Of a stretch of 64,000 nucleotides of DNA, positions 1,348 to 46,314 are shown in pieces. Origin of the DNA: a bacterium (GTDB lineage Bacteria > Patescibacteriota > Saccharimonadia > CAILAD01 > JADZBC01); assembly GCA_020852295.1 (NCBI GenBank), contig JADZBC010000009.1, positions 7,081 through 71,080 on the forward strand, given 5' to 3'. The translations under genes and the position numbers were made by a program. Position 1 is the stretch's first letter, and each line of letters opens with the position of its first letter. The notes beneath the pieces were generated by a model. That model was not told where the DNA came from. It searched no databases and was given only the letters and a program-made list of their open reading frames with translations.

Positions 1348-1670
1348 CTTCTTCAACACGAAGTTCTCCTCTTGGGAAGGTTCTCGCAACGAGTCAGTCG
1401 TTGCCACTGTTTGAGATAGATCCTTGCAGACCACCTCACCCTCACTACCCTTTGCAAAGGTGATGTAACCTGATCAAAAATGATAATTACAATATCATTT
1501 TTTGTATATCTTGTCAATACTCTTTTGGTTGTGACAGACAGGCGGTGAAACCTGCTGTCACTCTTTTGAGCGGTCCCGTTTTCCGCTCATCACTCTGTTC
1601 GTTATATCACTCGTGTACAGCGCTTGATGAGAGGAAGACACTTCTGTGTCAGGACCTGTGCTTTTTTGGT

Positions 1671-1693
1671 AAAAAAAATCCGCTGGCCGCGGA
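1671..1693 (-). terminator. Candidate rho-independent terminator on the minus strand, downstream of the nucleotidyltransferase-domain gene.
   Basis: Plus-strand A8 run at 1671-1678 followed by hairpin tccgc-tggcc-gcgga at 1679-1693. Read on the minus strand this is a hairpin followed by a T8 run. Confidence 0.4.
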
Positions 1694-1784
1694 CCTCGTA
1701 GGCTTGGTCTTTGGCGAAACGGGAATTTCGATACCTATAGCTTATTAAATTGTGAGAACATTATAGGGCAATGTAGCAGACTTG

Positions 1785-2654
1785 TCAAGCCCCCTGCTCT
1801 GATCTGATTTTTTTGTATCGCTCGGCTATCTCGGTGGTACGATCGAGGGCATGAAGATTGATGATATCAGGGCGAATCCGAACAAACGCGCGCTCAGTAT
1901 GATTCTTTGGCTGGCGAGAAGTATGCTTGAGATGACGACGGTAGCCAATGTCATCAAGCCAATCAAACACTCGCCAACCACCGCGAAAGATTCGCAATGG
2001 GTGATGCGGCCACGGATAGTTTGGTAGCTTCTCCTGATAATAGCCGCTCTTTCGCAGCAGGCCATGCCACACATCGGCGCCATATACCGGCTTGGCTAGT
2101 GCATAACGCCAGAGCAGATCGGGCTCATTGGTTTTCATGATGTCACGCTCCCACTTCACACCAACCGTCGTCAGGAACATACCGAGGCTAAAGCGCGCGG
2201 CTTTGTCCTTCTGGGTCTCGAGCTGCTTGAGAAGCTTGAGGCCATACATGAGAATACCCTTACTCAAAAAGATACGGCGCGGCGTCGTCACGACCAACAG
2301 ATCGATATCGCTGTTTTTGTTGGGGTTACCGATGCTCACACTGTTGACCACCACGATCGCCTTCACCGCCGGGATGAGCCGCATCAGATAACTCCAGCGC
2401 TGCGCCTTGACCAGGAGCCGGTCAACGATAGTATTTTGGCGCTTCATGTTGTGGTACTTGATCCCTGGCAAACCCCAGTATTCTTTCTGGATACGCACCA
2501 CATGGCCCTTGGCGACGAGCTTCTGTAATTCATCCTTAACCGCCAGATGGCTGGTGCGCACACGGATATACTCGAGGAGCTGCTCCTCGGTCACAGGCAG
2601 CTGCATGACAGCCATGTAGCTCAAAAAGTCCAGGATAGCAGCTCGTAGCCGCAT
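1785..2654 (-). CDS. Nucleotidyltransferase-fold (Pol-beta superfamily) domain protein, co-oriented and adjacent to the phosphohexomutase gene.
   Basis: Complete 289-aa ORF. It carries the motif VVVNSVSIGNPNKNSDIDLLVVT, which resembles the G[SG]...D.D nucleotidyltransferase signature. There is a 4-nt gap to the upstream gene. Confidence 0.55.
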   Translation of the reverse strand: MRLRAAILDFLSYMAVMQLPVTEEQLLEYIRVRTSHLAVKDELQKLVAKGHVVRIQKEYWGLPGIKYHNMKRQNTIVDRLLVKAQRWSYLMRLIPAVKAIVVVNSVSIGNPNKNSDIDLLVVTTPRRIFLSKGILMYGLKLLKQLETQKDKAARFSLGMFLTTVGVKWERDIMKTNEPDLLWRYALAKPVYGADVWHGLLRKSGYYQEKLPNYPWPHHPLRIFRGGWRVFDWLDDIGYRRHLKHTSRQPKNHTERAFVRIRPDIINLHALDRTTEIAERYKKIRSEQGA

Positions 2655-2657
2655 GGC

Positions 2658-3995
2658 TTAGCCCCGAATGAGTTTGAGTAGTTCTTCGGTTTTTTGCTTC
2701 ACGACAGAAGCATCTTCGCTCTCGACATTGAGCCGGATAACCGGCTCAGTGTTGCTGGCACGCACGTTGAACCACCAGTCTTTGTACTCAACCGTAAGGC
2801 CGTCGAGTTCATCTTGCTGGCCATCCAAGTACTTGGCCTTGAGTGCCTCGAGCACTTTTTGGGCGTCCGCCACCTCTGAGTTGATCTCACCCGACTGGGT
2901 ATAGCGACGACGAAAAGGCGTAAATTGCTCGGAGGCCGGCAGGTCTTTTTGGCCCAAGATATGAAAAGCCTTGAGTGCGGCCACCAGGCCACTGTCGGCT
3001 CGGTAGTTGTCTGCGAAGTAAAAATGCCCTGAGTGCTCAGCGGCAAACACCGCTCCCGTCTCTTTCATCTTAGCCTTGATAAAGCTGTGGCCCACCTTGG
3101 TTTTGATCGCCGTTCCACCCAGTGCCGAGATCGTATCAGGTACGATGTGTGAGCAGATCGCGTTGTAGAGTATGGTTGCGCCCGGGTGCAGCTCGAGCAT
3201 CTCGCGAGCGATCAGCGCCCCGAGTACGCTGCCCGTAACCACTTCACCCTTTTCATCAACCAAGAATGCTCGATCGCCATCGCCATCAAAGGCCACGCCG
3301 ATCTGGAGGCCTTTGCCCTGAACCAATTTCTGCAAGTCGGCCAAATTTTCTTCCACGAGCGGATTGGCTGGGTGATTCGGGAAATTGCCATCTGGGTCCA
3401 GGTAGAGGCCTTCGATCTCTAGCGGCGATTCGGCCACGAGCCGTTCAATGACTGGGCCCGCCATGCCATTGCCCGCATCGGCGCCCACCTTGAGTGGCTT
3501 GAGCTCACCAGCAAGCTCCAGCGTGTGCTGCACCCACTCATCCATGATGTCTTTGCTGGTGACACCCCCCTGCTCACTCGAGGGCTTGAAGGTGTCGCCC
3601 GCAACATTATCGCGAATTTGAGCAAGGCCCGACTCAATACCAATCGGTGCCACTCCCTGGCCAGTCAGCTTGATGCCGTTGTATTCCCCTGGGTTATGAC
3701 TTGCCGTGATCATGGCTCCGCCGGCCAGATCGTACTTACCGACTGCGTAATAAATCATGTCACTAGCTACCTGTCCGATATCCATCACTTCCCTGCCCTG
3801 CTTGGTCAGCCCGGCTATCATCGCGGCCGCCAGCTGTGAGCTGTCATTGCGCATGTCATGACCAACGGCGACAACTCCTTTAGGTAGATAGTCGGCCAAT
3901 GCTCGACCAACTGCTTCGACCACTTCTGGTGTGAGCTCAGTCCCTACTTTGCCGCGGATATCGTAGGCTTTAAATATGTCTGTAGCGAACTTCAT
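2658..3995 (-). CDS. Phosphomannomutase/phosphoglucomutase (alpha-D-phosphohexomutase family).
   Basis: 445 aa. Active-site TASHNP(GEYNG) motif, metal-binding loop GVAFDGDGDR, and a sugar-binding region with GHSFIK/EHSGHF. Confidence 0.9.
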   Translation of the reverse strand: MKFATDIFKAYDIRGKVGTELTPEVVEAVGRALADYLPKGVVAVGHDMRNDSSQLAAAMIAGLTKQGREVMDIGQVASDMIYYAVGKYDLAGGAMITASHNPGEYNGIKLTGQGVAPIGIESGLAQIRDNVAGDTFKPSSEQGGVTSKDIMDEWVQHTLELAGELKPLKVGADAGNGMAGPVIERLVAESPLEIEGLYLDPDGNFPNHPANPLVEENLADLQKLVQGKGLQIGVAFDGDGDRAFLVDEKGEVVTGSVLGALIAREMLELHPGATILYNAICSHIVPDTISALGGTAIKTKVGHSFIKAKMKETGAVFAAEHSGHFYFADNYRADSGLVAALKAFHILGQKDLPASEQFTPFRRRYTQSGEINSEVADAQKVLEALKAKYLDGQQDELDGLTVEYKDWWFNVRASNTEPVIRLNVESEDASVVKQKTEELLKLIRG

Positions 3996-4118
3996 ATATG
4001 TATCGTAATACAGTTAGCTATCCATGAGAACACAAACCGGCACAAAATATTACTATATAGCCAAGTTGACGCACCCAACCCTATTGGCCATAATTTTAAG
4101 CATAATCGAGGTATCAAT

Positions 4119-5087
4119 ATGCCAGAACCAATCCCTGGACAATCGCCAGAGCAGTCACCAAGTGAGTTTGTTGATCCTGTTTTGCCCGAACAGACAGATC
4201 AAGTCGAAGCAATCTCACCCGAAGAACTCGCAGTCCTTAAGCAGTACGAAAGCTATACCGGTGTCTGCGATGTAATTAGCGCAGACGAAGCCAGGGCGAT
4301 GGCCGACGAGCTTCGTGAGCACCGCAAAAACCCAAATAGAAAAGTGATGATTGGCGTAATGACACACCCGATAGTTTTAGACCTAGACAAGCCTGTGCCT
4401 GAAGCAGTACGAAAAGGGATCAGCGAAGTCTTCCCTACTCGAGAACAGATAGCCCTTGGTTTTACTGATGACCCGGATGTCCTCAATACAATCCACTACG
4501 CTGACCTATACGGACCCGAGGGGCCCTGGAAGAGTGGGCAATCCCCAGATATCCTCAGGCATCTAGAAATGTGCGTCGAGTACGGTGGAGAAAACCTGCA
4601 CGCAATACAGCTTGATGTTACCTGGCCAAACGTCGAGGACATTAAGGCATTTAAGCAAAAGCACCCCGATATTCTCATAGTACTTCAGGTTGGAGTGTTC
4701 TCTTTTCGGGAAGCCAACAATGACCCTCAGCAAGTGCTAGATAATATTCGCCAATACGGAGACTCTATCGACTATGCGCTCCTCGACACCAGTATGGGCA
4801 AGGGTAAGGGCATGGATAGCGAGAGCCTACTCGAAATGCTGCGCCTACTCCAGTCAGAAATGCCAGATCTGGGCTTGGCGGTAGCTGGCGGTCTAGGGCC
4901 AGACTCACTCGACATTCTCCAGCCAATTGCCGATGAATTTCCGGACATTGCCATCGACGCCCAGGGCAGATTAAAACCCGAAGACAGCCCGAGAGACTCA
5001 GAAGGTCACCTGGTTGCAACAATTCCGGCCGACCTCAATCGCGCCAAGGAGTACATTAGCAAGAGCTGCGAGATGCTCGACCACTAA
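4119..5087 (+). CDS. Hypothetical protein with an acidic, proline-rich N-terminus and a C-terminal region resembling a phosphoribosylanthranilate-isomerase (TrpF)-like TIM barrel.
   Basis: 322 aa. ALLDTSMGKGKGMD ... LGLAVAGGLGPDSL parallels the TrpF pattern (V)LD..GGSG..FDW ... LAGGLGADN. This is fold-level resemblance only. Confidence 0.4.
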   Translation: MPEPIPGQSPEQSPSEFVDPVLPEQTDQVEAISPEELAVLKQYESYTGVCDVISADEARAMADELREHRKNPNRKVMIGVMTHPIVLDLDKPVPEAVRKGISEVFPTREQIALGFTDDPDVLNTIHYADLYGPEGPWKSGQSPDILRHLEMCVEYGGENLHAIQLDVTWPNVEDIKAFKQKHPDILIVLQVGVFSFREANNDPQQVLDNIRQYGDSIDYALLDTSMGKGKGMDSESLLEMLRLLQSEMPDLGLAVAGGLGPDSLDILQPIADEFPDIAIDAQGRLKPEDSPRDSEGHLVATIPADLNRAKEYISKSCEMLDH

Positions 5088-6895: not shown

Positions 6896-7939
6896 TTAGT
6901 ACCAAAGATTGTGCTTGCGACGAGTATTGACCGCCAACGTTGCTCGCTCGAGCCCTCCGGTCCAAAGCTGATACTTACGATCATTGAGCGGCACATCGAG
7001 TGTGCCGGCAAACTCGGTAATATGCTCATTGAAGCCCGATTTGAACTGATACAGGCTATGTAGCGGATGACTGCCATCGAGCGCATCGCGCGTCGGTGAG
7101 CCAAGTAAGTCGTAGCTCTCTGCCCCACGCTCCTTGGCCCAGCGCATAATCTCCCACTGCATCAGGTGTGGCGCCATGAGTTCGCGCTTATTTCGAGTCG
7201 AACCGCCATCCTTGTACCAGGCGTGCTTGCCCATCTGGATGATAAATGCAGCAGCAATTGGCTCACCCTCGTGCTCGGCTACAAAAAACTGACCGTGTCC
7301 TGAATCCGTCAGAATCCGCCAATACTCCTCAAAGTAACTGCGCGCCGGAAAAAAGAAATGTGCTCGTTCGTGTACCGAAGTAATCAGGTTGTACACGATA
7401 TCAATATTTTGCGGGGTTGGGTCAACTGGCTTAACCGCCACACCCTTGCGCGCCGAAAGACGAATATTATAGCGCGCCTTTTGCTTAAATCCCGCCAGGA
7501 TCTCCTCCTCGCTCGGGCGCAGATCTACCATGATTGTGGCTTTGAGCTGCACATTGCGCGCTGGTTTGACTATCTTGTGTGTAGCAGCTCGCTTCAAATC
7601 AACATCATCAACATCAAGTTCTGGCTCTACCTTGAGCAAAAATGCCTTGGGCTTGCTCGCTACCAGCGCATCGACCACCTCATACAGGTCGTGTTGGCTC
7701 GTTACCCCTGGTCCTTTGCTGATATACCAGATTGTGCCAAGGCCGCGCACTGAGCGCTGGTACACAAGTATCGCCACCTTGAGGCCTTTGTGTTCGTACA
7801 CCTTGTAGAGTGGCTTCCAGCCGAGTGAGAGCTTAAACTCAGCCCACTCACGACTCTGCAAAAAATGCCCGCCGTCGGGATTAGCCTCAATCAGTTTGTC
7901 CCATTGAGCAATCTCTTGGTCGGTGGCTTCTCGTATCAT
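6896..7939 (-). CDS. FemAB-family peptidoglycan interpeptide-bridge aminoacyltransferase, paralog 1.
   Basis: 347 aa. N-terminal ...GHFLQSREWAEFK... and C-terminal ...LMQWEIMRWAKERGAESYDLLG... are characteristic of FemX/FemAB acyltransferases. It overlaps the next fem gene by 4 nt. Confidence 0.8.
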   Translation of the reverse strand: MIREATDQEIAQWDKLIEANPDGGHFLQSREWAEFKLSLGWKPLYKVYEHKGLKVAILVYQRSVRGLGTIWYISKGPGVTSQHDLYEVVDALVASKPKAFLLKVEPELDVDDVDLKRAATHKIVKPARNVQLKATIMVDLRPSEEEILAGFKQKARYNIRLSARKGVAVKPVDPTPQNIDIVYNLITSVHERAHFFFPARSYFEEYWRILTDSGHGQFFVAEHEGEPIAAAFIIQMGKHAWYKDGGSTRNKRELMAPHLMQWEIMRWAKERGAESYDLLGSPTRDALDGSHPLHSLYQFKSGFNEHITEFAGTLDVPLNDRKYQLWTGGLERATLAVNTRRKHNLWY

Positions 7940-8898
7940 ACGCGTCGAATCCTTTTAGCTAGTTTATACAATCGATAGCTACTTTGGCGAACTGGCACCT
8001 CCCATGTCCCTACCCGCGTGAGCATCTTGCCACCAAAGGCTTTCTTAAACTTCGTAAAGCCCGCCCAGGGGTGTGCCGGGTCATCACTGGGTGTAACTCC
8101 CCAGAAGTCAAACCGGGTAAAGCCCTGCGCCTTAGCGTCGAGTATCATATGCCAGACGAGCGGCATGGCGGCGCTAAGCTTGCGGTTTTGTGCCTGAAAT
8201 GCTCCGGCGTGAGCGTAATAGCGTGTTTTGTTCCAGTCAAAGACGAGTGCCGAAGCAATCGGCTCACCCTCGTGCTTGGCGATAAATAGCTTGGCAGCAT
8301 CACGCTTACCGAGCACTTTAAGCATAGTGCGATAGTAGTCATCCTCGTGGGCACTAAATCGACCCTTAGTTGTGTCGTGCATCATCTTGAGAAATAGCTC
8401 CACGTCGCTGTCTTTCTTGGATTCCGCAAAGCGTAAACCCTTGCGACTGGCCGAATTGACACCATAACGATGCCCAGCGCTCAATCCACTACGCAGCACT
8501 TCCTCGCTTGGACTTATGTCTAGCACCCAAGGGTACTTTGGCTCCACTGGCGCAACTTCTCGCGCGCCAAGCTCCATAAGATCTTGCTCCGACACATCAC
8601 CCAGTGGCTCGATCCGCACAAAAGTGCAGCCCAATTCATCGGCCTTTGTATACAAACTTTGTAGCGCCTGAGTAAGATTTTTTGGCTCGGCAATGGTCGG
8701 CCCGCACTGAACAAATAGGTACTTCAGCCGACGCACATTGCGCACACTGGCAAGATAGCTCCAACCTGGACCAGCGTCAAAAACCACTTCATTGCCAACC
8801 GATTGCTGAAATGCCGCCCAGTGCGAGCTCTGCAAAAAGTGCCCATTTTGATCAATGAGCCGCTCATCCCAATCTTTTGGCAACGTGGAGTTTGGCAT
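7936..8898 (-). CDS. FemAB-family peptidoglycan interpeptide-bridge aminoacyltransferase, paralog 2.
   Basis: 320 aa, with the same GHFLQSSHWAAFQ and LVWHMILDAKAQGFTRFDFWG motifs. It lies in tandem with paralog 1. Confidence 0.8.
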   Translation of the reverse strand: MPNSTLPKDWDERLIDQNGHFLQSSHWAAFQQSVGNEVVFDAGPGWSYLASVRNVRRLKYLFVQCGPTIAEPKNLTQALQSLYTKADELGCTFVRIEPLGDVSEQDLMELGAREVAPVEPKYPWVLDISPSEEVLRSGLSAGHRYGVNSASRKGLRFAESKKDSDVELFLKMMHDTTKGRFSAHEDDYYRTMLKVLGKRDAAKLFIAKHEGEPIASALVFDWNKTRYYAHAGAFQAQNRKLSAAMPLVWHMILDAKAQGFTRFDFWGVTPSDDPAHPWAGFTKFKKAFGGKMLTRVGTWEVPVRQSSYRLYKLAKRIRRV

Positions 8899-8953: not shown

Positions 8954-9982
8954 ATGAAAATTCTCGCTATCGAAAGTAGCTGTGACGAAACAGCAGCGGC
9001 CGTCATTGCCGACGGACGCAAAGTCTTAAGCAGTGTCATTGCCAGTCAAATAGATATTCACGCCCAGTTTGGTGGCGTTGTGCCTGAAGTGGCGGCGCGC
9101 AGCCACATTGAAGTCGTGATACCAGTGATCGAGCAGGCTCTCCGAGAAGCGAGCACCGACTGGAATGACATTGATGCTATTGCAGTCACGCGTGGCCCGG
9201 GACTCATCGGTTCACTCCTCATCGGTACCCTCACCGCCCAGACTCTCGCAGAGCTTAAGCACAAGCCCCTGATTGGGGTCAATCATATCGTGGCGCACGC
9301 TTTCGCTGCCAACCTGACCGATACGCCACCGAGCTTTCCGATGCTCGCGCTCACCGTCTCGGGCGGACACACCGCACTGACACTCTACCAAGACGACCTT
9401 TCCGCTGAAATCGTCGGTGAAACCCAAGATGATGCTGCTGGCGAAGCTTTCGACAAGGTGGCCAAGCTGCTCGGCCTGCCCTACCCTGGCGGTCCAGCCG
9501 TCAGTAAAGTAGCGGCCGATGGCAACGACACGGCCTACCCATTTCCTCACGCCAAGCTCCGTAATCCGCTCGACTTTAGTTTTTCTGGGCTCAAAACAGC
9601 GGTACTGCGACAAGTGCAGCAGATCACCGGCGTCAACCCGGGCGATCTCACCATCCCAAAGAGCTATGAGCTCGAGCCTCAAGTACTCGCCGATATTGCA
9701 GCTTCATTTGAGAAAACAGTCGTTGATACACTCGTGAAAAATACCAAGCTAGCCATCGAACAATACCAGCCAGCCAGTGTCGTGGTGGGTGGTGGCGTCG
9801 CGGCCAACAAACGCCTGCGCGAAGAGCTCAGCCAAGCTGTACCTGGCGCCATCTTCGTTCCTCCAGTGCTCTGTACCGACAACGCTGCCATGATTGGCGC
9901 ATTGGCCTACCAAATGCAAAAACGAGGCCGCGTGACCTCGCCTTTTGAACTAAAAGCTGACTCTAGCCTCGAAGTGCTCTAA
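8954..9982 (+). CDS. tsaD: tRNA N6-adenosine threonylcarbamoyltransferase TsaD (Kae1/Gcp family).
   Basis: MKILAIESSCDETAAAV... with Fe-binding HxxAH (NHIVAHAF). Start was chosen at ATG 8954 rather than the longer track ORF at 8855, because the longer form overlaps the divergent fem gene. Confidence 0.9.
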   Translation: MKILAIESSCDETAAAVIADGRKVLSSVIASQIDIHAQFGGVVPEVAARSHIEVVIPVIEQALREASTDWNDIDAIAVTRGPGLIGSLLIGTLTAQTLAELKHKPLIGVNHIVAHAFAANLTDTPPSFPMLALTVSGGHTALTLYQDDLSAEIVGETQDDAAGEAFDKVAKLLGLPYPGGPAVSKVAADGNDTAYPFPHAKLRNPLDFSFSGLKTAVLRQVQQITGVNPGDLTIPKSYELEPQVLADIAASFEKTVVDTLVKNTKLAIEQYQPASVVVGGGVAANKRLREELSQAVPGAIFVPPVLCTDNAAMIGALAYQMQKRGRVTSPFELKADSSLEVL

Positions 9983-14526: not shown

Positions 14527-14619
14527 GGAGAGGTACCCAAGAGGCTGAAGGGGCTGGTTTGCTAAACCGGTAGGGCGGGGTAACTTGCCGCGAGGGTTCG
14601 AATCCCTCCCTCTCCGCCA
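14527..14619 (+). tRNA. tRNA-Ser(GCT), type II, CCA encoded.
   Basis: Acceptor ggagagg/cctctcc, anticodon loop tTGCTAa, long variable arm, T-arm gaggg-ttcgaat-ccctc, discriminator G followed by CCA. Confidence 0.85.
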
Positions 14620-14633
14620 AGTTTTTTTTATTT

Positions 14634-14725
<92 letters not shown>

Positions 14726-16018: not shown

Positions 16019-16633
16019 ATGAACGACGAACAGCAACCAGTAAAGGGGCCGCGACAGCAGCCCGTCCAGCAGCCAGAGAAAAAACAGGGGAGGTTTGCCG
16101 CAGCTTTTGGGGCGCTCGTTGGGCCCGACAAGGAACAGGTTATTTCGCACCCAGACGAAGAGCCGGCCGAACCCGAGGTGTCACTTCTTCAGTGGCGCGC
16201 ACCCGAGTTTGCCTACACCAAGAAGCCCGTTGGTTGGTTTGTGGCACTCGGCGTGCTTTTTGCTGGCCTAGTTGCGCTCGCCATCTACACACAACAGTGG
16301 CTGACGATCGGTCTACTGGCCGTTATGGCTATCGCGGTCGCCGTATATGCCAACCGGGAGCCCCGTGAGCTCGACTACGAAATAACCAACTACGGCATCA
16401 AGATTAACGACAAAGACTACGACTTCGACAAATTCCGCTCGTACTATGAGATGGACGACTACGGTCACAAATACATCGACTTTGTGCCGGTAAAGCGGTT
16501 TGACCTGCTTGTTTCTATACCAGTACCGCCAGAACTCGAGGACGACATCGAAGACCTCATGAGTCAGGTGCTGCCCAAGACCGAGACGCGCAATGACGCT
16601 ATCGACAAACTCTTTCGCTTCCTCCGCTTCTAG
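16019..16633 (+). CDS. Hypothetical membrane protein with two TM helices.
   Basis: 204 aa. Q/P-rich N-terminus, two adjacent TM helices (WFVALGVLFAGLVALAIY / LTIGLLAVMAIAVAVYA), acidic C-terminus. Confidence 0.55.
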   Translation: MNDEQQPVKGPRQQPVQQPEKKQGRFAAAFGALVGPDKEQVISHPDEEPAEPEVSLLQWRAPEFAYTKKPVGWFVALGVLFAGLVALAIYTQQWLTIGLLAVMAIAVAVYANREPRELDYEITNYGIKINDKDYDFDKFRSYYEMDDYGHKYIDFVPVKRFDLLVSIPVPPELEDDIEDLMSQVLPKTETRNDAIDKLFRFLRF

Positions 16634-16680
16634 CCTTCCAATTATTGCTCGTTTAAGGTAAAATAAGCCGGTTCTAACGC

Positions 16681-16757
16681 GCGCTCGTAGCTCAGTTGGA
16701 TAGAGCGTCGGTTTGCGGTACCGGAGGTCGCAGGTTCGAATCCTGCCGAGCGCACCA
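16681..16757 (+). tRNA. tRNA-Arg (anticodon read as GCG), CCA encoded.
   Basis: Canonical cloverleaf. Acceptor gcgctcg/cgagcgc, D-arm gctc-agttggata-gagc, anticodon stem tcggt/accgg with loop ttGCGgt, T-arm gcagg-ttcgaat-cctgc, discriminator A followed by CCA. Confidence 0.8.
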
Positions 16758-16800
16758 GAGGCCCATAAATCAGCAATGGTTTGTGGGCCTCTGGTTTTCT
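16757..16800 (+). terminator. Hairpin with T-tract after tRNA-Arg, a possible terminator.
   Basis: agaggccca-(loop)-tgggcctct followed by ggttttct. Confidence 0.4.
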
Positions 16801-16849
16801 GGTTGACTCTATTGGATTTTCAGGTTAGAATTTCTTTTGCTTTTACAGC

Positions 16850-16925
16850 GAGGGCGGAGCTCGGCCTGGCTGAGCGCTCCCTCAACCCGAGGGAGAGGTC
16901 GGAGGTTCAAATCCCCCCGCCTTCA
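16850..16925 (+). ncRNA. tRNA-like element A. Acceptor, D and T arms are intact, but the anticodon arm is replaced by a 7-bp stem with a 5-nt loop. Possibly a pseudo-tRNA.
   Basis: Acceptor gagggcg/cgccttc (all paired, one G.U), D-arm gctc-ggcctggct-gagc, T-arm ggagg-ttcaaat-ccccc (one mismatch), central hairpin ctccctc-aaccc-gagggag. No U33 or purine-37 context, and no CCA. Confidence 0.35.
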
Positions 16926-16968
16926 CTGGGTCTCGAGACGCTGCCATGTGCCGTCTCGGGACTCGCTT

Positions 16969-17063
16969 GCGAGTAAACGCTGGGTGATGGCACCCCAGCT
17001 CCTGTTGCCGCAGGAATAGGTTTCGTGATCTCGCCTATCGTGGGTTCGGGTCCCACTACTCGC
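16969..17063 (+). ncRNA. tRNA-like element B. Type-II-like with 5 arms and a perfect 7-bp acceptor, but the anticodon-position loop is 6 nt.
   Basis: Acceptor gcgagta/tactcgc; hairpins gctggg-tgatggcac-cccagc, tcctg-ttgccg-cagga, atagg-(13 nt)-cctat; T-arm gtggg-ttcgggt-cccac; no CCA. Confidence 0.3.
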
Positions 17064-17090
17064 TCGAGGCAGGCATGCCACAAAATGCCG

Positions 17091-17172
17091 CGGGCTGTAG
17101 CGCAAAGTGCCTTCGGGCCGGTAGCGCGCTGCCTTCGGGCAGAGGTTGCTGGTTCAAGTCCAGCCAGCCCGA
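17091..17172 (+). ncRNA. tRNA-like element C. Acceptor and T arm are intact. The anticodon arm is replaced by a UUCG-tetraloop hairpin, and a second UUCG hairpin is inserted in the D-loop. There is no anticodon.
   Basis: Acceptor cgggctg/cagcccg perfect; D stem gcgc/gcgc with inserted gcc-ttcg-ggc; ctgcc-ttcg-ggcag in the anticodon position; T-arm gctgg-ttcaagt-ccagc; discriminator A. Confidence 0.35.
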
Positions 17173-17280
17173 CGAGAGGGAGCCCACAAAGCACGGCAAG
17201 CCGAGTAGGCAACTCCCTCTGGTGGGTGGATCGATGAATGTACGCATGACACGCGTAAACTGTCGATCCACCCACCCCAC

Positions 17281-17355
17281 GCCCCTGTAGTTCGCGGTAA
17301 GAACACTGGGGAATCCACGCCCCAGAGGTTGGCTGTTCGAATCAGCCCAGGGGCT
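17281..17355 (+). ncRNA. tRNA-like element D. Canonical acceptor, D and T arms, but the anticodon loop is 9 nt (or 8 nt with a 6-bp stem).
   Basis: Acceptor gcccctg/caggggc perfect; D-arm gttc-gcggtaa-gaac; stem ctggg/cccag around loop gaatccacg; T-arm ggctg-ttcgaat-cagcc. Confidence 0.35.
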
Positions 17356-17383
17356 CAAAGGCTCGATCAGCCTCAATGATCAC

Positions 17384-17454
17384 GCGCCCGTAGCTTAAGC
17401 GGCAAAGCTCTGTCTCTTAAACAGGAGTTGAGGGTTCGAATCCCTCCGGACGCA
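17384..17454 (+). tRNA. Probable tRNA-Lys(CTT). Slightly atypical, with one acceptor mismatch and no nucleotide at position 26.
   Basis: Acceptor gcgcccg/cggacgc (C4-A69 mismatch), D-arm gctt-aagcggca-aagc, anticodon stem tctgt/acagg with loop cTCTTaa (U33, A37), T-arm gaggg-ttcgaat-ccctc, discriminator A, no CCA. Confidence 0.5.
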
Positions 17455-17488
17455 CAAATTGTTACCTTGGATTGGTCCAGGGTAACCA

Positions 17489-17515
17489 CCCCGGCTCTAT
17501 GCCGGGGTTTGCTAT
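17489..17515 (+). terminator. Rho-independent terminator closing the tRNA / tRNA-like array.
   Basis: ccccggc-tctat-gccgggg followed by tttgctattt. Confidence 0.6.
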
Positions 17516-18328
17516 TTACGATAATTTTTGAAAAACGCCGTGCAGAGTGTGTTCGAGACCGAAATATCGTTCGTCAGATTGTTTTTGAATAGCCTCGTAA
17601 ATCCGTGTCTCGACCACCAACTTAACCGGCCTGAAGCCAAGCTTTTCAATGAGATCATAATCTTGCTGTGTTCCACCATCCCAAACCAAATATCCACCTG
17701 GCTTTATGACCCTGGCGGCCTCTTGTAGGGCCGCATCACGGAGATCAGATTCATGGTCTGGTTCGAACTCTCGCAGAGCCCCATTGAGGGCACTAATATG
17801 AACCGAGCCAGCCGAATTATGCGCTAGTGGCATCTGCCGCACGTCAGCAATCGCATCCAGCTTCGCGCCTGGCATCCCCAGCGGCGAGTGTGTAACGTTT
17901 GTCACGAAATCAGGTTTGGCATCTGGCAGAATGTGCGAATCAGCCCTGCGCTCGGTTGGCCCGGCAAACTCAACTGCAGTGCCCGCGCCGTGCACAGTTG
18001 GCCAATCTATATCTCCCCAACGAAAAGTTTGGGTTATGGAGCGGTATTCATCGTCTGTTGTTTCTTCCCCGCGCGGTGGATCTATTTCGTAGTCATAGTC
18101 TATCTTGGCATCAGGTCCGAGTTTTGCCGGCAACCAAGAGTCGACATGGCGTAATATCTTCTCGGCCTCTTCTCTCTTAAAAAATGTCGTGTCTGATAGA
18201 TCAAACTCGCGCCCCACTAGGTGCAATAAGTCTTGGTGGAGGTTTTCGTGGGAGGGAAGTGGTGTTTCGCCAGGCATAGCTCGATTATAGTCTAAACCGC
18301 TCGAGCCTGGTACAATATTGCAGATCAA
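17516..18328 (-). CDS. Hypothetical protein, possibly with a SAM-methyltransferase-like C-terminal segment.
   Basis: 270-aa complete ORF. RVIKPGGYLVWDGG resembles the post-motif-II region of class I methyltransferases. Support is weak. Confidence 0.5.
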   Translation of the reverse strand: MICNIVPGSSGLDYNRAMPGETPLPSHENLHQDLLHLVGREFDLSDTTFFKREEAEKILRHVDSWLPAKLGPDAKIDYDYEIDPPRGEETTDDEYRSITQTFRWGDIDWPTVHGAGTAVEFAGPTERRADSHILPDAKPDFVTNVTHSPLGMPGAKLDAIADVRQMPLAHNSAGSVHISALNGALREFEPDHESDLRDAALQEAARVIKPGGYLVWDGGTQQDYDLIEKLGFRPVKLVVETRIYEAIQKQSDERYFGLEHTLHGVFQKLS

Positions 18329-18332
18329 CTAA

Positions 18333-18424
18333 GGAGAGATGGCCGAGTGGTTGAAGGCGCTGCTCTCGAAAAGCAGTATGCGGGGTTACTCGCATCGTGG
18401 GTTCGAATCCCACTCTCTCCGCCA
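18333..18424 (+). tRNA. tRNA-Ser(CGA), type II, CCA encoded.
   Basis: Acceptor ggagaga/tctctcc, anticodon stem ctgct/agcag with loop cTCGAaa, long variable arm, T-arm gtggg-ttcgaat-cccac, G followed by CCA. Confidence 0.85.
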
Positions 18425-42188: not shown

Positions 42189-42457
42189 CGCACACTCACG
42201 GCGATAAAGCGTACACCTTCGACACCGCGTTTTGTAATCTCTTTAAGGATATCCTGCGCGGCATGCCGCAGTTCACTCGCAGCCGCGGCGTCCTCGGTCG
42301 CAATCTTAATGACCCCATTCTTGTAGCTAACTACTCGTACCTCAATGCGAAGCATATCAACAATCGCAAGTTTTACCTCGGTCATGACGTCAAGCTTCTG
42401 CATGCCAAGACTATCGGCACGCCGACTCAGTATGTCCTTGATGTCATCCATGGCCAA
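42185..42457 (-). CDS. DUF721-like small protein, as in the conserved recF-associated position.
   Basis: 90 aa, located immediately downstream of recF with a 14-nt overlap, matching the common dnaA-dnaN-recF-DUF721 arrangement. Confidence 0.55.
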   Translation of the reverse strand: MAMDDIKDILSRRADSLGMQKLDVMTEVKLAIVDMLRIEVRVVSYKNGVIKIATEDAAAASELRHAAQDILKEITKRGVEGVRFIAVSVR

Positions 42458-43517
42458 CCCCGCTCAAATCGATCACCTGAATATCCATATTGCTCATCCC
42501 ATCAAGCTCGGTTGCAGTGATGAATGTTTGTTGTTGCCCAACGATAGCTATGAGATGCTGTCGGCGGCGCTCATCGAGCTCGCTAAATACATCATCCAGA
42601 AGAAGGGTAGGGCGCTGTAAAGTCTTCGCCTGCATATATTCAATCTCAGAGAGCTTCATTGCCAAAATAAGCGTTCTCATTTCGCCGCGTGACACGATTT
42701 CGACAACCGGCCGATTGTCGCGCAGAATACTAAAATCATCACGATGTGGTCCCAAAGTACTAAAACCGGCCGCCACGTCGCGTACATGGGCCCTGCGCAG
42801 CTCTGAGAGGTATTCATTGTCCATGCTTACACTCGGCCGATACTCCAAAACAAACTCATGGGTAAGGTTTGCGATGCGACCATACTCGCCATTGAGCTGG
42901 TCGGCCATAGTCTTAAGGAAGTCAGCTCGAGTAACCATAAGGTGTTGTGCTGGTTCAGCCAGCTGCACATCAAAAACAAAAAGCTGATCTGACAGACTCG
43001 CATCGTCTGCTCGACCATATTTTTTAGCTTGATGGAGGAGACTGTTGCGCTGCTTAAGTATGCGCCGATAGAGCGATAACTGCTTCATATAGGCGCGATC
43101 GACTTGCGATAATATCGTATCCAAATAGCGTCGGCGCTGACTTGGCCCATCATAGAGAAGCGACAGATCCCTGGGCTCAAAAAGAACTACCGGATGACGG
43201 CCAACTAAGTATGAAAGAGGTTTTTTAACATCACCCAGTAGAGCTGTCTTGTGGTGACTGTCGCCAGTAACAACATACCGAACCTCTGTCATTTCATCTT
43301 CATGCTGACAGCGAACCTTATAAAAATCAGCCTCAAAATTTACGAGTTCGGGATCGTGCGCTCGAAATGACTTTGTCGTAGCGCTTACATAGATCGATTC
43401 GAGTAGGTTAGTCTTGCCGACGGCATTTGGGCCAATAATCGCGACGATAGAGGATGTAAAATCAATACCAAAATCTTTGTAGGATCGAAAGTTGGTTAGC
43501 GCCAGATGCTTGATCAT
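42444..43517 (-). CDS. recF: DNA replication and repair protein RecF.
   Basis: Walker A GPNAVGKTNLLESI, SMC-like signature and Walker B LLLDDVFSELD. Confidence 0.9.
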   Translation of the reverse strand: MIKHLALTNFRSYKDFGIDFTSSIVAIIGPNAVGKTNLLESIYVSATTKSFRAHDPELVNFEADFYKVRCQHEDEMTEVRYVVTGDSHHKTALLGDVKKPLSYLVGRHPVVLFEPRDLSLLYDGPSQRRRYLDTILSQVDRAYMKQLSLYRRILKQRNSLLHQAKKYGRADDASLSDQLFVFDVQLAEPAQHLMVTRADFLKTMADQLNGEYGRIANLTHEFVLEYRPSVSMDNEYLSELRRAHVRDVAAGFSTLGPHRDDFSILRDNRPVVEIVSRGEMRTLILAMKLSEIEYMQAKTLQRPTLLLDDVFSELDERRRQHLIAIVGQQQTFITATELDGMSNMDIQVIDLSGVGHG

Positions 43518-43523
43518 ACATGC

Positions 43524-44630
43524 CTAGCTACGTAGTGGCATAATAATGTGTCGATACGAGGTATCCTGTTCACCTTTGACAGGCGTGACAAGACAGGGGT
43601 TGAGCTTGCCTGAAATACCAAGTTTAACGGTCGGGGTTTTGACGACTGTCAATACATCAAGTAGGTATTTAGCATTGAGCGAGATTTCACCAGGATCACC
43701 AACGAGCTTGGTCTCGAGTGAAGATTGGTTTTCGCCAACCTGGGCGGCACTACTCGAAATTGACAGCTTGCCAGCCTCAAACGTCAGCTTGATCGTATTG
43801 GCAGTTTCTCGAGCAAAAAGACCTGCTACCTTAATCGTTGAGAGTAGTTCGGCCGTATCAACTACCGCTTCCGTCTCATTCTTATCAGGAATTATTTTTT
43901 TGTAATCAGGGAATTTACCCTCAATCAATCGAGAAACAAGCCGAATGTCGCCCATATTAAACTCTATCTCTGTCTCGGTTGCGCCAACTTCAACATCACC
44001 CTCGTACTGAGAGAGGATTCGAATGAGTTCGTTGACCGTCTTCGCCGGCACGATAAAATCAGCATCCGCCTTTTGCTCTTGCGTAAGGGCAACAACTGAT
44101 TCAGCGAGTCGATAGCTATCGGTCGCAGCTAATAGCAACTCTTTTCCGCGAACAGAGAAGACCACACCAGAAAGAACCGGTCGAGACTCATCAACAGCCG
44201 CCGCAAACCCCACCTGACTGAGCGCGGTGACGAGTGTTGCCGCTGGAAATGAAAGCGATGTGGTTGGCTTGATGACCGGCACATTCGGAAACTCTTCACT
44301 CGCAATCCCATTAATGGTTGACTCGAAGTTAGTCGTCTTGATGTGGAGGTTTTGTGCCGCCGCGTTGAGCAGTAGCTTGTCGCTGGGGAGGGAATTGATG
44401 AGCTCGGTCAGAAGGCGAGCAGGCACACTGAGGCTGCCATCAGTTTCAACCTTGGCACCTACCTGATAAACGATAGCTATTTCTAGATTTGTACCAATTA
44501 CTTCGAGTCGTCCCAAGTTTGCCTTGAGTAATACGTTAGAGAGTACGGCTAGGCTCGATCGATTACCTACTACACGACTCACCACGTTTAAGGCTTTACT
44601 TAAATTTTCTTGAATTACTGATACTTTCAT
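43524..44630 (-). CDS. dnaN: DNA polymerase III beta sliding clamp.
   Basis: 368 aa with a three-domain clamp pattern (MKVSVIQENLSKALNVVSRVV... ; ...LNPCLV...), positioned between dnaA and recF. Confidence 0.9.
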   Translation of the reverse strand: MKVSVIQENLSKALNVVSRVVGNRSSLAVLSNVLLKANLGRLEVIGTNLEIAIVYQVGAKVETDGSLSVPARLLTELINSLPSDKLLLNAAAQNLHIKTTNFESTINGIASEEFPNVPVIKPTTSLSFPAATLVTALSQVGFAAAVDESRPVLSGVVFSVRGKELLLAATDSYRLAESVVALTQEQKADADFIVPAKTVNELIRILSQYEGDVEVGATETEIEFNMGDIRLVSRLIEGKFPDYKKIIPDKNETEAVVDTAELLSTIKVAGLFARETANTIKLTFEAGKLSISSSAAQVGENQSSLETKLVGDPGEISLNAKYLLDVLTVVKTPTVKLGISGKLNPCLVTPVKGEQDTSYRHIIMPLRS

Positions 44631-44928
44631 ATTTATCCCCTCAAGCTATTGCTTATTATAAGTTAATTAATAAATAGTAGTGATAGTAATAGTGTCTGTG
44701 GATAGCTTGGAAAAGTCGAAAAAACACTATGTTTATCGTTTGTTTTTGTTTTCTACACTGTGTACAAGCACTGCATACGAATATGTGTGTAAATGTATAA
44801 CTTGTGCATGTTTTGTGTTTTCATAATCTAGTGAGTCTGTCAATTGTGTTTATCTAGTGGAAAAACACACGGTTTTAAACAACTATTACACAACTTATCC
44901 ACCACTTAACCACAGGGCCTGTGTATAA
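44631..44928. promoter_or_regulatory. AT-rich dnaA-dnaN intergenic region with DnaA-box-like 9-mers, a candidate oriC half.
   Basis: TGTGGATAG at 44697-44705 and TTATCCACC at 44895-44903, plus AT-rich tracts. Confidence 0.45.
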
Positions 44929-46314
44929 CTATCCATTGAGGATTTTTTGTTTCAGGGTTTTTATTTCATGACTAACTGAATCATTCTTTGTGAGTTCGGC
45001 ATTGATTTTGCGTACCCCGTGCATGATGGTCGTATGGTCCCGACCACCAAGAGAACTAGCGATACGTGGAAAACTAATGCCAAGCTCTTCACGCATGATA
45101 TACATCGCTACCTGACGGGGCACCACAATCTCCTTGTCGCGGCGGGGGCCGATGAGATCGGCAGTCGTTAGATCGTAAAAAGCGGCAGTCTTTTCGATAA
45201 CTATCTTTGGACTCAAGGTGGTCCGCGATGGTCGCGCTGTCGCCCCGCCGCCGATCACCTGGTCGACTATTTCGGTTGTGATTGGGGTGGCATTAGCTTG
45301 GCAATGGGCGATCAGTCGAGTGAGGGCACCCTCAAGTTCTCGAATATTGGTCTGTAGTAGCTCAGCCAAGTGACTCGCTACATTGTCTGGGAGGTCGAAC
45401 TGACGACTGCTAGCCTTACTCTGTAAGATCGCGACCCGTGTCTCGAAGTCTGGCAGCTGAATATCGGCGACCATACCCCACTCAAAGCGGCTCCTTAAGC
45501 GGTCCTCAAGGGTGGCGATAGCTTTTGGTGGTCGGTCGGAACAGAGCACAATCTGCTTGTTGGCCTGGTGGAGTGCATTGAAAGTATGAAAAAACTCTTC
45601 CTGGGTTTTCTCTTTGCCGGCAATAAACTGCAGATCATCAACCAGTAGGACATCAACCGTTCTATACGTATCGGCAAACTTTTCACCTTTTCGAATGGCG
45701 TTAATGAAATTATTCGTAAAGTCCTCACTCGTAACATATAAGATCTTAAAGTCCGGGTGACTACGAGCGATCTCAAAGCTGATCGCCCACATCAGGTGAG
45801 TCTTACCGACACCAGCTGGCCCATACAGAAAGAGGGGGTTGTACGATTCACCGGGGTTTTCAGTAACCTGGCGAGCTGCCGTAAAAGCGAGCCGATTGCC
45901 GGACCCAACGATAAAGTTGGTGAAGTTGTACTTTGCTTCGAGATTCTTCGGCAGGCTGATTTGCGACTGACGATTATTGGCGGACTGCTTTGTTTTCTGT
46001 GGGGTAGTTGGCTTTTCGGTTGGCCGATCGAGCCGAATATCTTCTTCCGCGGCCGTGCTCGCGGTCTTTATCTGGTAGGTAATTGATTCAATCGAGGGCT
46101 CTTGCTTCTGTAGGGCCGACAATATTTCACCATTATAGTTATGCTCAAGTCGATCTCGTGCAAAGATATTAGGAGCTGCAACGACAGCCTGAGTGTCGCC
46201 GAGCTCGAGCAGGTGAGTGTTCTTCACCCATGTTTTAAAGTTTGCACCGCTCATAGAGACCTCTAGCTCACCAAGAACGGCTCGCCAGATCCTATCGAGA
46301 TCCTTTTGTGACAT
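44929..46314 (-). CDS. dnaA: Chromosomal replication initiator DnaA.
   Basis: AAA+ Walker A GPAGVGKTHL, Walker B LLVDDLQF, and C-terminal DnaA-box-binding HTH (...RQVAMYIMREELGISFPRIASSLGGRDHTTIMHG...). Confidence 0.95.
   Translation of the reverse strand: MSQKDLDRIWRAVLGELEVSMSGANFKTWVKNTHLLELGDTQAVVAAPNIFARDRLEHNYNGEILSALQKQEPSIESITYQIKTASTAAEEDIRLDRPTEKPTTPQKTKQSANNRQSQISLPKNLEAKYNFTNFIVGSGNRLAFTAARQVTENPGESYNPLFLYGPAGVGKTHLMWAISFEIARSHPDFKILYVTSEDFTNNFINAIRKGEKFADTYRTVDVLLVDDLQFIAGKEKTQEEFFHTFNALHQANKQIVLCSDRPPKAIATLEDRLRSRFEWGMVADIQLPDFETRVAILQSKASSRQFDLPDNVASHLAELLQTNIRELEGALTRLIAHCQANATPITTEIVDQVIGGGATARPSRTTLSPKIVIEKTAAFYDLTTADLIGPRRDKEIVVPRQVAMYIMREELGISFPRIASSLGGRDHTTIMHGVRKINAELTKNDSVSHEIKTLKQKILNG

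Follow-up and report, generated by a model that had tools for sequence, protein, structure and literature searches.

A conserved transcription unit of tRNA-derived RNAs with closed or deformed anticodon loops in a probable Saccharibacteria host

Why would a bacterium keep, side by side, four tRNA-like genes whose products appear unable to read a codon? The question is raised by a stretch of 64,000 nucleotides (nt) of contig JADZBC010000009.1 (GenBank assembly GCA_020852295.1, positions 7,081 to 71,080, forward strand), hereafter called the window, in which four cloverleaf RNAs, A to D, are encoded on the + strand between a tRNA-Arg(GCG) and a tRNA-Lys(CUU). They lie where an initial annotation had placed them, and its description of four tRNA-like elements with intact acceptor, D and T arms and aberrant anticodon arms is borne out by Rfam, by folding and by a base-by-base check. 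On the evidence of sequence comparison, the region is a dedicated transcription unit with its own promoter-like site and terminator, and its tRNA-derived RNAs are under purifying selection.

Anatomy of the four tRNA-like elements

All four elements retain an acceptor stem of 7 base pairs (bp), GG in the D arm and UUCRAnU in the T arm, from which B departs by having G58 in place of A58 (T loop UUCGGGU). None of them has a canonical anticodon arm with its 5-bp stem, 7-nt loop, U33 and 3-nt anticodon; the arms consist of 7 bp and 5 nt in A, 6 bp and 4 nt in B, 5 bp and 4 nt in C, and 6 bp and 8 nt in D. As the anticodon loop is closed or deformed, A–D would be unable to pair with a codon, and this anatomy is what would exclude them from ribosomal decoding. 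The arm details given in the initial annotation hold overall and need correction in places: the loop of D, read as 9 nt, has 8 or 10, the G58 of B departs from the GTTCRAnTC ascribed to every T arm, and the T stem of A contains one A.C mismatch.

At the Rfam gathering threshold, a search of the whole window returns five ordinary tRNAs only. In a search confined to the region, A, C and D all score above the gathering score of the tRNA model (29 bits; Table 1), and each of the three alignments requires an insertion or deletion exactly within the anticodon loop. ARAGORN also predicts these three elements, giving each of them an odd anticodon, and it identifies the gene that ends the unit as tRNA-Lys(CUU). 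The sole model match of B is to tRNA-Sec, under the gathering score of that family. Both at gathering and at permissive thresholds the Rfam matches are confined to the tRNA clan, with no specific family that fits; weak microRNA, plastid and riboswitch matches were set aside as noise. As single sequences, A, B and D fold into the cloverleaf (z-scores from -2.9 to -4.1). C has a minimum-energy fold (z -2.5) other than the cloverleaf, which for this element rests on the Rfam alignment and on hand-checked pairing.

Each element carries the marks of a different tRNA type. The acceptor stem of A, GAGGGCG/CGCCUUC, includes G3:U70 and is followed by the discriminator A73, the identity mark of alanine, and its long anticodon stem is capped by AACCC. 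B is a class II molecule with five arms, among them a 6-bp D stem and a 5-bp extra arm, and has the discriminator U73; its anticodon arm, UCCUGU-UGCC-GCAGGA, can be read as 6 bp closed by UGCC or, as in the initial annotation, as 5 bp with a 6-nt loop. The T arm of B and the bases preceding it match the tRNA-Ser genes of the window, and the long extra arm is kept; by these resemblances, B is derived from tRNA-Ser. The acceptor stem of C, CGGGCUG/CAGCCCG with C1:G72 and followed by A73, is of a type typical of bacterial tRNA-Pro. Its anticodon arm is CUGCC-UUCG-GGCAG, and a second hairpin, GCC-UUCG-GGC, is inserted into the D loop upstream of the retained GG. The C copy of a related locus, L008, has the appearance of a tRNA-Pro except in the anticodon arm, and C is, as far as such likeness tells, derived from tRNA-Pro. 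In D, the acceptor stem GCCCCUG/CAGGGGC (G1:C72, C2:G71) and U73 are of the bacterial glycine type. The 8-nt loop of its anticodon arm is AAUCCACG, and Rfam reads the arm as 5 bp and 10 nt; the loop keeps UCC, U33 is absent and the sixth pair closes the loop. Judged by its acceptor, D is derived from tRNA-Gly.

Two further readings of C and B were tried and rejected. An identity of the leucyl-tRNA synthetase (LeuRS) type for C, from A73 with A15:U48, is true of the window copy only. For B and its homologue B' in L008, an identity as tRNA-Sec or allo-tRNA does not agree with their 7/5 geometry, where 8/5, 9/4, 8/4 or 9/3 would be expected, with tRNA-Sec scores (25.5 and 33.6 bits) that stay below the gathering score of 47, or with the lack of UCA. 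The acceptor pattern of C was also run on viral contigs, where it gave more than 120 matches of ordinary tRNA length (72-75 nt); the pattern is unspecific, which suggests that the C acceptor is of a common, Pro-like tRNA type.

The tRNA-Arg(GCG) is the upstream anchor of the locus and holds the same position in all related loci, whether the array is present or absent. The terminators that had been claimed for tRNA-Arg and after tRNA-Lys are both present. Of the promoter-like site between tRNA-Arg and A, L008 keeps both hexamers and their spacing with a different spacer sequence. In the fold of the whole unit, the spaces between the tRNA-like elements are densely filled with hairpins; a hairpin stands directly 3' of A in the other units too, though with a sequence that varies. 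At the end of the unit, tRNA-Lys(CUU) departs from the canonical form by a C4.A69 mismatch and by the absence of nucleotide 26.

Table 1. Features of the array locus and the Fem genes, with positions in the window
Feature	Position	Strand	Evidence
Two tandem FemX-like/FemAB genes	6896-7939, 7936-8898	-	Pfam FemAB, E = 2e-35 and 3e-30
tRNA-Arg(GCG), canonical, CCA encoded	16681-16757	+	ARAGORN; Rfam tRNA 70.1 bits
Intrinsic terminator of tRNA-Arg	16754-16795	+	19-bp stem, then T run; conserved in L008
Promoter-like site of the array, TTGACT-17-TAGAAT	16803-16831	+	10 of 12 consensus positions match
Element A	16850-16925	+	Rfam tRNA 35.5 bits; fold; family of eight sequences with covariation
Spacer hairpin directly 3' of A	16928-16964	+	Fold of the whole unit
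Element B	16969-17064	+	Folds; tRNA-Sec model 25.5 bits, under gathering score; homologue B' in L008
Element C	17091-17172	+	Rfam tRNA 49.1 bits; six lineages, all stems paired
Long hairpin with WUSACAY-type tip	17221-17276 (tip 17241-17257)	+	z-score -7.3
Element D	17281-17355	+	Rfam tRNA 46.9 bits, oversized loop; fold z-score -4.1
tRNA-Lys(CUU), near-canonical, last gene of the unit	17384-17455	+	ARAGORN; Rfam 56.5 bits
Array terminator	17488-17508	+	8-bp GC-rich stem, then T-rich tail

Related loci and compensatory changes

Related loci were collected as orthologous contigs through a 204-amino-acid (aa) open reading frame (ORF) upstream of tRNA-Arg and by scanning genomes and metagenomes with a pattern built on A. 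Besides two near-identical contigs with the same array (L006, L007), A-like and C-like elements follow tRNA-Arg(GCG) in five other lineages. In L008, whose flanking protein is 74% identical, the same promoter precedes A-, B- and C-like elements up to the end of the contig; in L005 and L009 (about 67% identical) and in L010 and L011 (about 30%), a C-like and then an A-like element stand at the same place. The A-type pattern found one species genome, a metagenome-assembled genome (MAG) of Candidatus Saccharibacteria, and seven metagenome contigs, among which L015 is the same contig as L008, L012 carries an ordinary tRNA-Trp, and L016 and L017 hold tRNA arrays of another kind in which the member matched is irregular too. 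No match to the pattern was obtained in viral contigs, and a covariance model of A picked up no additional copy, either in the window or in loci without the array. The related loci have diverged too far to be copies of one sequence spread by recent horizontal transfer.

When the window is compared with L008, identity is 97% in tRNA-Arg, 88% in A, 70-71% in B and C and 77% in the neighbouring coding sequence, and the longer spacers are 44-63% identical, with 44% for the spacer between A and B. Most of the differences in B and C lie in stems that have been replaced and are still paired. For A, eight sequences were aligned to a covariance model, and in this alignment, which is thus fitted to the model, 96.6% of the cells are standard-paired, compared with 81% in shuffled sequences and 44-64% when the partners are slid. 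Both sides have changed in 10 of the 23 pairs (six of seven in the anticodon stem, two in the T stem and the acceptor pairs 6:67 and 7:66), and none of 500 shuffles reaches the observed values. The anticodon stems of the family are essentially unrelated (CUCCCUC, CUCCUCC, GUUCGAC, CUCGUCC, GUCGCC, UUCGCC, UCCGUC, GCGGGU), and all eight arms are helices of 6-7 bp capped by 3-5 nt, where the probability of six consecutive pairs by chance is about 0.003.

The C family tells the same story in six lineages: all four stems are fully paired in each, and the anticodon stem, which comes in five sequences, is capped by UUCG, GCUCA, CCUUUGC, CACAA, AAUA and CAAA (4, 5, 7, 5, 4 and 4 nt). A hairpin is inserted at the same place of the D loop in three of the copies, with GG kept. 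B' keeps all five arms of B with different stem sequences. A and the C copy of L008 are probably paralogues, as they have the variable region and the T arm in common. The compensatory changes in stems that are still paired, together with conservation across the related loci, argue that A, B and C are functional RNAs and not decaying pseudogenes. For D, the copies compared are those of the near-identical L006 and L007, and homologues of the 270-aa ORF downstream yielded one informative short contig; D is very probably a functional RNA as well. The initial annotation had considered the pattern non-random, and the aberrant arms are indeed conserved in relatives with compensatory changes in every stem. 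Its term "anticodon-less tRNA mimics" is a fair description of RNAs in which the anticodon arm is kept as a closed helix instead of decaying.

The long hairpin between C and D belongs to the same unit as the tRNA-like elements. Its tip is a 5-bp stem with the 7-nt loop AUGACAC, and its 14-bp outer helix is followed by CCA. A WUSACAY loop on a covarying stem of 4-6 bp recurs in six of seven array units, including the unrelated L014, and hairpins of this type occur five times in 128 kb of window sequence, both strands counted. The loop resembles the anticodon loop of tRNA-Val (U33, C/G-A-C, A37). Pairing of this loop with the loops of A or C was looked for by eye and discarded as inconsistent across lineages.

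Further copies were seen in other settings. The groundwater contig L014 has a lone A-type element (387-465; 7 bp and a 5-nt loop) with encoded CCA and its own TTGACA/TAATAT promoter, and a structured RNA with a WUSACAY-type hairpin follows it. In L013, a phage-like contig with a DUF551 gene, two elements on the - strand (9073-9144 and 9743-9817) have capped anticodon arms of 6 bp with GGAA and 7 bp with AUGC and flank one gene, each being preceded by GTAGGGCGAAC and followed by TGTAGT. B' (1034-1127 of L008) joins a class II body and an 8-bp extra arm to a perfect CUCUUAA loop (Lys CUU), so that its shape and anticodon disagree, as they do in allo-tRNAs.

A possible carrier function and its rivals

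The best supported of the ideas on function, and a sharper form of the first suggestion of the initial annotation, is that A–D are non-decoding aminoacyl carriers for tRNA-dependent transferases. In this model, the RNAs would be excised from the transcript by tRNA-processing enzymes, and CCA would then be added. Members whose synthetases are independent of the anticodon would be charged, A by alanyl-tRNA synthetase (AlaRS) through G3:U70 and A73 and B by the seryl enzyme (SerRS) through its long extra arm, and an anticodon would be retained where the synthetase needs one, as UCC in the enlarged loop of D for the glycyl enzyme (GlyRS) and as the intact loop of tRNA-Lys. The non-decoding RNAs would act as amino-acid donors reserved for a non-ribosomal tRNA-dependent transferase, with two FemX-like peptidoglycan transferases encoded 8 kb upstream as the candidates. 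This general form is put forward tentatively, as a possibility that falls short of being probable. A narrower form appears more doubtful still: the tRNAs with a disabled loop would be kept off the ribosome and act only as donors of Ala, Ser and Gly for FemX-like transferases, with the loop removed only where charging permits.

What speaks for the carrier model is that the state of the loop follows the need of the synthetase: the cap is found in every one of the eight copies of A and in the window copy of B, D keeps UCC, and the loop is intact in tRNA-Lys, whose synthetase (LysRS) needs the anticodon. G3:U70 is the main determinant of AlaRS, for which no anticodon is needed, and serine identity is likewise independent of the anticodon, as SerRS reads the long arm (PMC9976931). 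GlyRS uses U73, G1-C72 and C2-G71 together with C35 and C36 (PMC9976931). A link to Fem enzymes would agree with the Ala, Ser and Gly character of A, B and D, these three amino acids being the ones most often added to peptidoglycan from aminoacyl-tRNA (PMC9976931). In Weissella, FemX identifies its donor by the acceptor arm and can use aminoacylated helices that imitate this arm (PMC2655667, PMC2175331), and Staphylococcus aureus keeps a non-proteogenic tRNA-Gly for its Fem enzymes (PMC7826273). The duplicated FemAB-type genes that had been noticed nearby are confirmed by Pfam (Table 1); the first matches FemX of Weissella viridescens over nearly its full length and, with a lower E-value, S. 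aureus FmhB in the N-terminal half, and for the second the matches are the C-terminal part of FemA and two entries annotated as aminoacyl-tRNA-dependent peptide synthase. A tblastn search with these proteins gave no match in the collected loci, which do not extend far enough to cover the corresponding position.

A number of findings weigh against the carrier model and must be considered as well. The Fem genes lie 8 kb from the array and outside its operon. No CCA is encoded in A–D or in the array tRNA-Lys, where only one C (C74) follows the discriminator, and it is encoded in the four canonical tRNAs of the window, Arg and three Ser (16681-16757, 14527-14725, 18333-18424). In favour of the model, the 3' half of tRNA-Lys is conserved in L141, a lineage with 71% identity, with a compensated T stem and again no CCA, which implies that the cell must add CCA post-transcriptionally if this tRNA is functional. 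A carries A2:U71, whereas all known tRNA-Ala have G2-C71, and FemX of Weissella depends on C71 and C72. Again in favour of the model, G3:U70 and A73 are present in all eight members of the A family while 6:67 and 7:66 covary, but this invariance is partly built into the sample, since the pattern used to find four of the eight sequences (L010, L011, L013, L014) prescribed acceptor pairs 1-5; the covariation in the anticodon stem, the T stem and pairs 6:67 and 7:66 is unaffected by this selection. C, which is one of the two most widely kept members, has a tRNA-Pro acceptor without the anticodon determinants of prolyl-tRNA synthetase (ProRS), which relies on G35 and G36 (PMC9976931), and its role is left unexplained by the carrier scheme. 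The loop is not disabled in every copy, as the C-like element of L010 and B' both keep 7 nt. Six loci with flanking proteins of 47-52% identity (L001-L004, L138, L140) have tRNA-Arg only, and L139 ends before the position in question; the array is thus dispensable or replaceable, and its distribution indicates that it is old within the group and was lost, or never gained, in some branches. Lastly, a phage has no obvious use for a cell-wall donor, so that the two capped elements of L013 count against the model too.

The same findings are read differently if the RNAs are uncharged, tRNA-shaped decoys or regulators that titrate, or protect against, a protein that binds the tRNA body or acceptor end, such as a tRNA-targeting toxin or nuclease of a phage, the host or a competitor, an editing factor, a modification enzyme or RNase P. 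What is conserved would then be the L-shape with acceptor-stem sequences of several tRNA types (Ala, Pro, Ser, Gly) and not of one, the implausible charging of C and the missing CCA would cease to be difficulties, and both the similar capped elements in a phage-like contig and the patchy distribution, which is typical of conflict-related genes, would find a place. However, no toxin, nuclease or other partner gene is conserved beside the array, many tRNA-cleaving toxins cut the anticodon loop, which is the very part missing here, and a decoy would give A no reason to keep G3:U70 over a Watson-Crick pair; a decoy function is accordingly judged rather unlikely. Somewhat less credit is given to processing or stability modules, that is, to tRNA-like elements serving as "punctuation" signals for RNase P and RNase Z, or as scaffolds, with small hairpins such as the WUSACAY hairpin as the real effectors. 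The dense packing of hairpins between the elements, the conservation of the WUSACAY hairpin with compensatory changes in most units (that of L014 included) and the protein gene flanked by two capped elements in L013 would suit such modules, and a closed anticodon arm would be expected if only the acceptor/T half matters and decoding is to be avoided. Yet most spacers are poorly conserved (the 44-63% identity noted above), L011 has A and C without a WUSACAY hairpin, and the conservation of D arms, of the contacts between GG and the T loop and of specific acceptors goes beyond the needs of cleavage signals.

Two other explanations fare worse. The elements could be unusual working decoders, with D as a quadruplet or frameshift tRNA-Gly, for which ARAGORN proposes the 4-base anticodon UCCA, or with B and B' as class II tRNAs that insert Ser at Lys codons, as the perfect CUCUUAA loop on the Ser-like body of B' might suggest; allo-tRNAs with mismatched identity and anticodon are known (PMC7609411). 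This is very improbable, as loops of 3-5 nt on stems of 5-7 bp (A, C and the window B) cannot present an anticodon, the loop of D lacks U33 and is closed by its sixth pair, and the loop sequences are not conserved between lineages. The least likely of all is that the array consists of decaying, functionless tRNA pseudogenes or relics of serial integration, as had also been proposed. The aberrant anticodon arms, the missing CCA and the absence of the array from some relatives could be taken in this sense, but the "four independent pseudogenes" of the initial annotation turn out to be complete cloverleaves behind a promoter of their own, which is itself conserved, and their stems remain paired through many compensatory changes in lineages whose flanking proteins are 30-74% identical. 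A is moreover more conserved than the adjacent coding sequence. Relics of serial integration would be expected to look different from full cloverleaves: they would be 3' fragments, like the partial tRNA copy of L138 described below, and no integrase is found near the array among the annotated neighbouring genes of the window. The suggestion of Y-RNA-like modules finds no Rfam match, as a search of 16600-17600 with E-values allowed up to 10 yields no Y RNA family; the elements are closed cloverleaves that lack the extra long helix of Y RNA-like RNAs (YrlA), and no Ro-type Pfam family occurs among the ORFs scanned, several ORFs being without match or unscanned. The remaining probability belongs to some explanation not yet conceived.

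Relation to known systems and the wider locus

To our knowledge, non-decoding tRNA-like RNAs are known only as transfer-messenger RNA (tmRNA), the staphylococcal cell-wall tRNA-Gly, viral 3' ends and Y-RNA modules. The array RNAs are most like the staphylococcal non-proteogenic tRNAs or the tRNA-like domain of tmRNA, and are members of neither. The non-proteogenic tRNA-Gly genes of S. aureus are likewise extra tRNA genes beside the decoding set, poorly used by translation and thought to reserve aminoacyl groups for FmhB, FemA and FemB (PMC7826273), and the window has FemX-like genes. In contrast to the array elements, with their canonical D and T arms and closed loop, the staphylococcal tRNAs have a normal anticodon loop and escape through changes in the D and T arms; charging and use by Fem enzymes are, for the array RNAs, putative. 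The tRNA-like domain of tmRNA, which is charged with alanine, resembles A in its G3:U70 acceptor, its T arm and the lack of an anticodon, and the Rfam tmRNA model aligns to the A-like element of L010 with 30.4 bits (below the gathering score of 47), at the two model ends only. By contrast, the array has no mRNA-like domain, pseudoknots or tag reading frame, ARAGORN finds no tmRNA, and in A the D stem is complete and the anticodon stem closed, whereas in tmRNA the place of the anticodon arm is taken by SmpB.

The nearest published description is that of polycistrons of allo-tRNA-like and irregular tRNAs (Mukai et al. 2017), as far as these are portrayed in a review (PMC7609411). According to this account, they are co-transcribed, carry Ser or Ala identity marks that mismatch their anticodons and have no known function, which likens them to the array; their geometry is 8/4 or 9/3, their hosts are Acidobacteria, Clostridia and Proteobacteria, and most of them retain the anticodon loop (PMC7609411). 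The array differs from what is reported there in its 7/5 geometry, its capped loops and its probable Saccharibacteria host. Clustered tRNA-type genes with some non-canonical members are also found in the tRNA arrays with pseudo-tRNAs of bacteria and phages (L016 and L017 are examples), but these consist mostly of ordinary decoders, and their odd members look degenerate, whereas here four of five are non-decoding, well folded and conserved. A literature search for tRNA-like RNAs of Saccharibacteria or the Candidate Phyla Radiation and for the term "anticodon-less" gave no relevant description.

The interest of the locus lies in a conserved chromosomal operon of full cloverleaves in which the anticodon arm appears to be deliberately kept closed, in a host lineage whose genome is very small and in which useless DNA would not be expected to last. 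Charged RNAs would represent a new and simple way of reserving amino acids for non-ribosomal use and would point to a side chain of Saccharibacteria peptidoglycan that is still to be described; uncharged ones would be a new class of tRNA mimic with an unknown partner. Should the narrower reading as donors of Ala, Ser and Gly be true, this would be the first case in which aminoacyl-tRNA is split between translation and the cell wall by removal of the anticodon. The family is small, well defined and directly testable.

In the wider locus, the gene order valS, two tRNA-Ser, tRNA-Arg is common to the related contigs. The window has the look of a Saccharibacteria-type (Patescibacteria) chromosome and carries a type IV secretion cluster, to which stretches with type IV secretion system (T4SS)-pilin genes correspond in syntenic relatives. 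At 42444-46314 (- strand), recF-like, dnaN and dnaA genes lie at the minimum of the cumulative GC skew, and this is probably the replication origin region. In the Saccharibacteria MAG L010, terminase and serine-recombinase genes stand beside tRNA-Ser(CGA) and tRNA-Arg(CCG) at 1466-4306, which probably marks a prophage inserted close to the array locus. Next to the intact tRNA-Ser(CGA) gene of L138 lies an incomplete copy of its 3' end (about 2300-2420) that forms no cloverleaf; unlike the array, it resembles a tRNA relic, perhaps an integration scar.

Other small structures accompany the related units. L005 (about 3543-3597) and L009, in the corresponding part, have a 7-bp acceptor-like stem around a hairpin whose loop, UGCCUCCUU, resembles the anti-Shine-Dalgarno end of 16S rRNA; the structure stands directly before the terminator of the unit. 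The sediment contigs L016 and L017 carry dense arrays of 11-17 tRNA genes in about 3.3 kb, in which the 5'-proximal member (2477-2551 in L016 and 3060-3134 in L017, - strand) has the same acceptor stem as A and an ill-formed anticodon arm; the fold of the L016 element has a z-score of -1.0, and a separate tRNA-His lies further upstream of that array.

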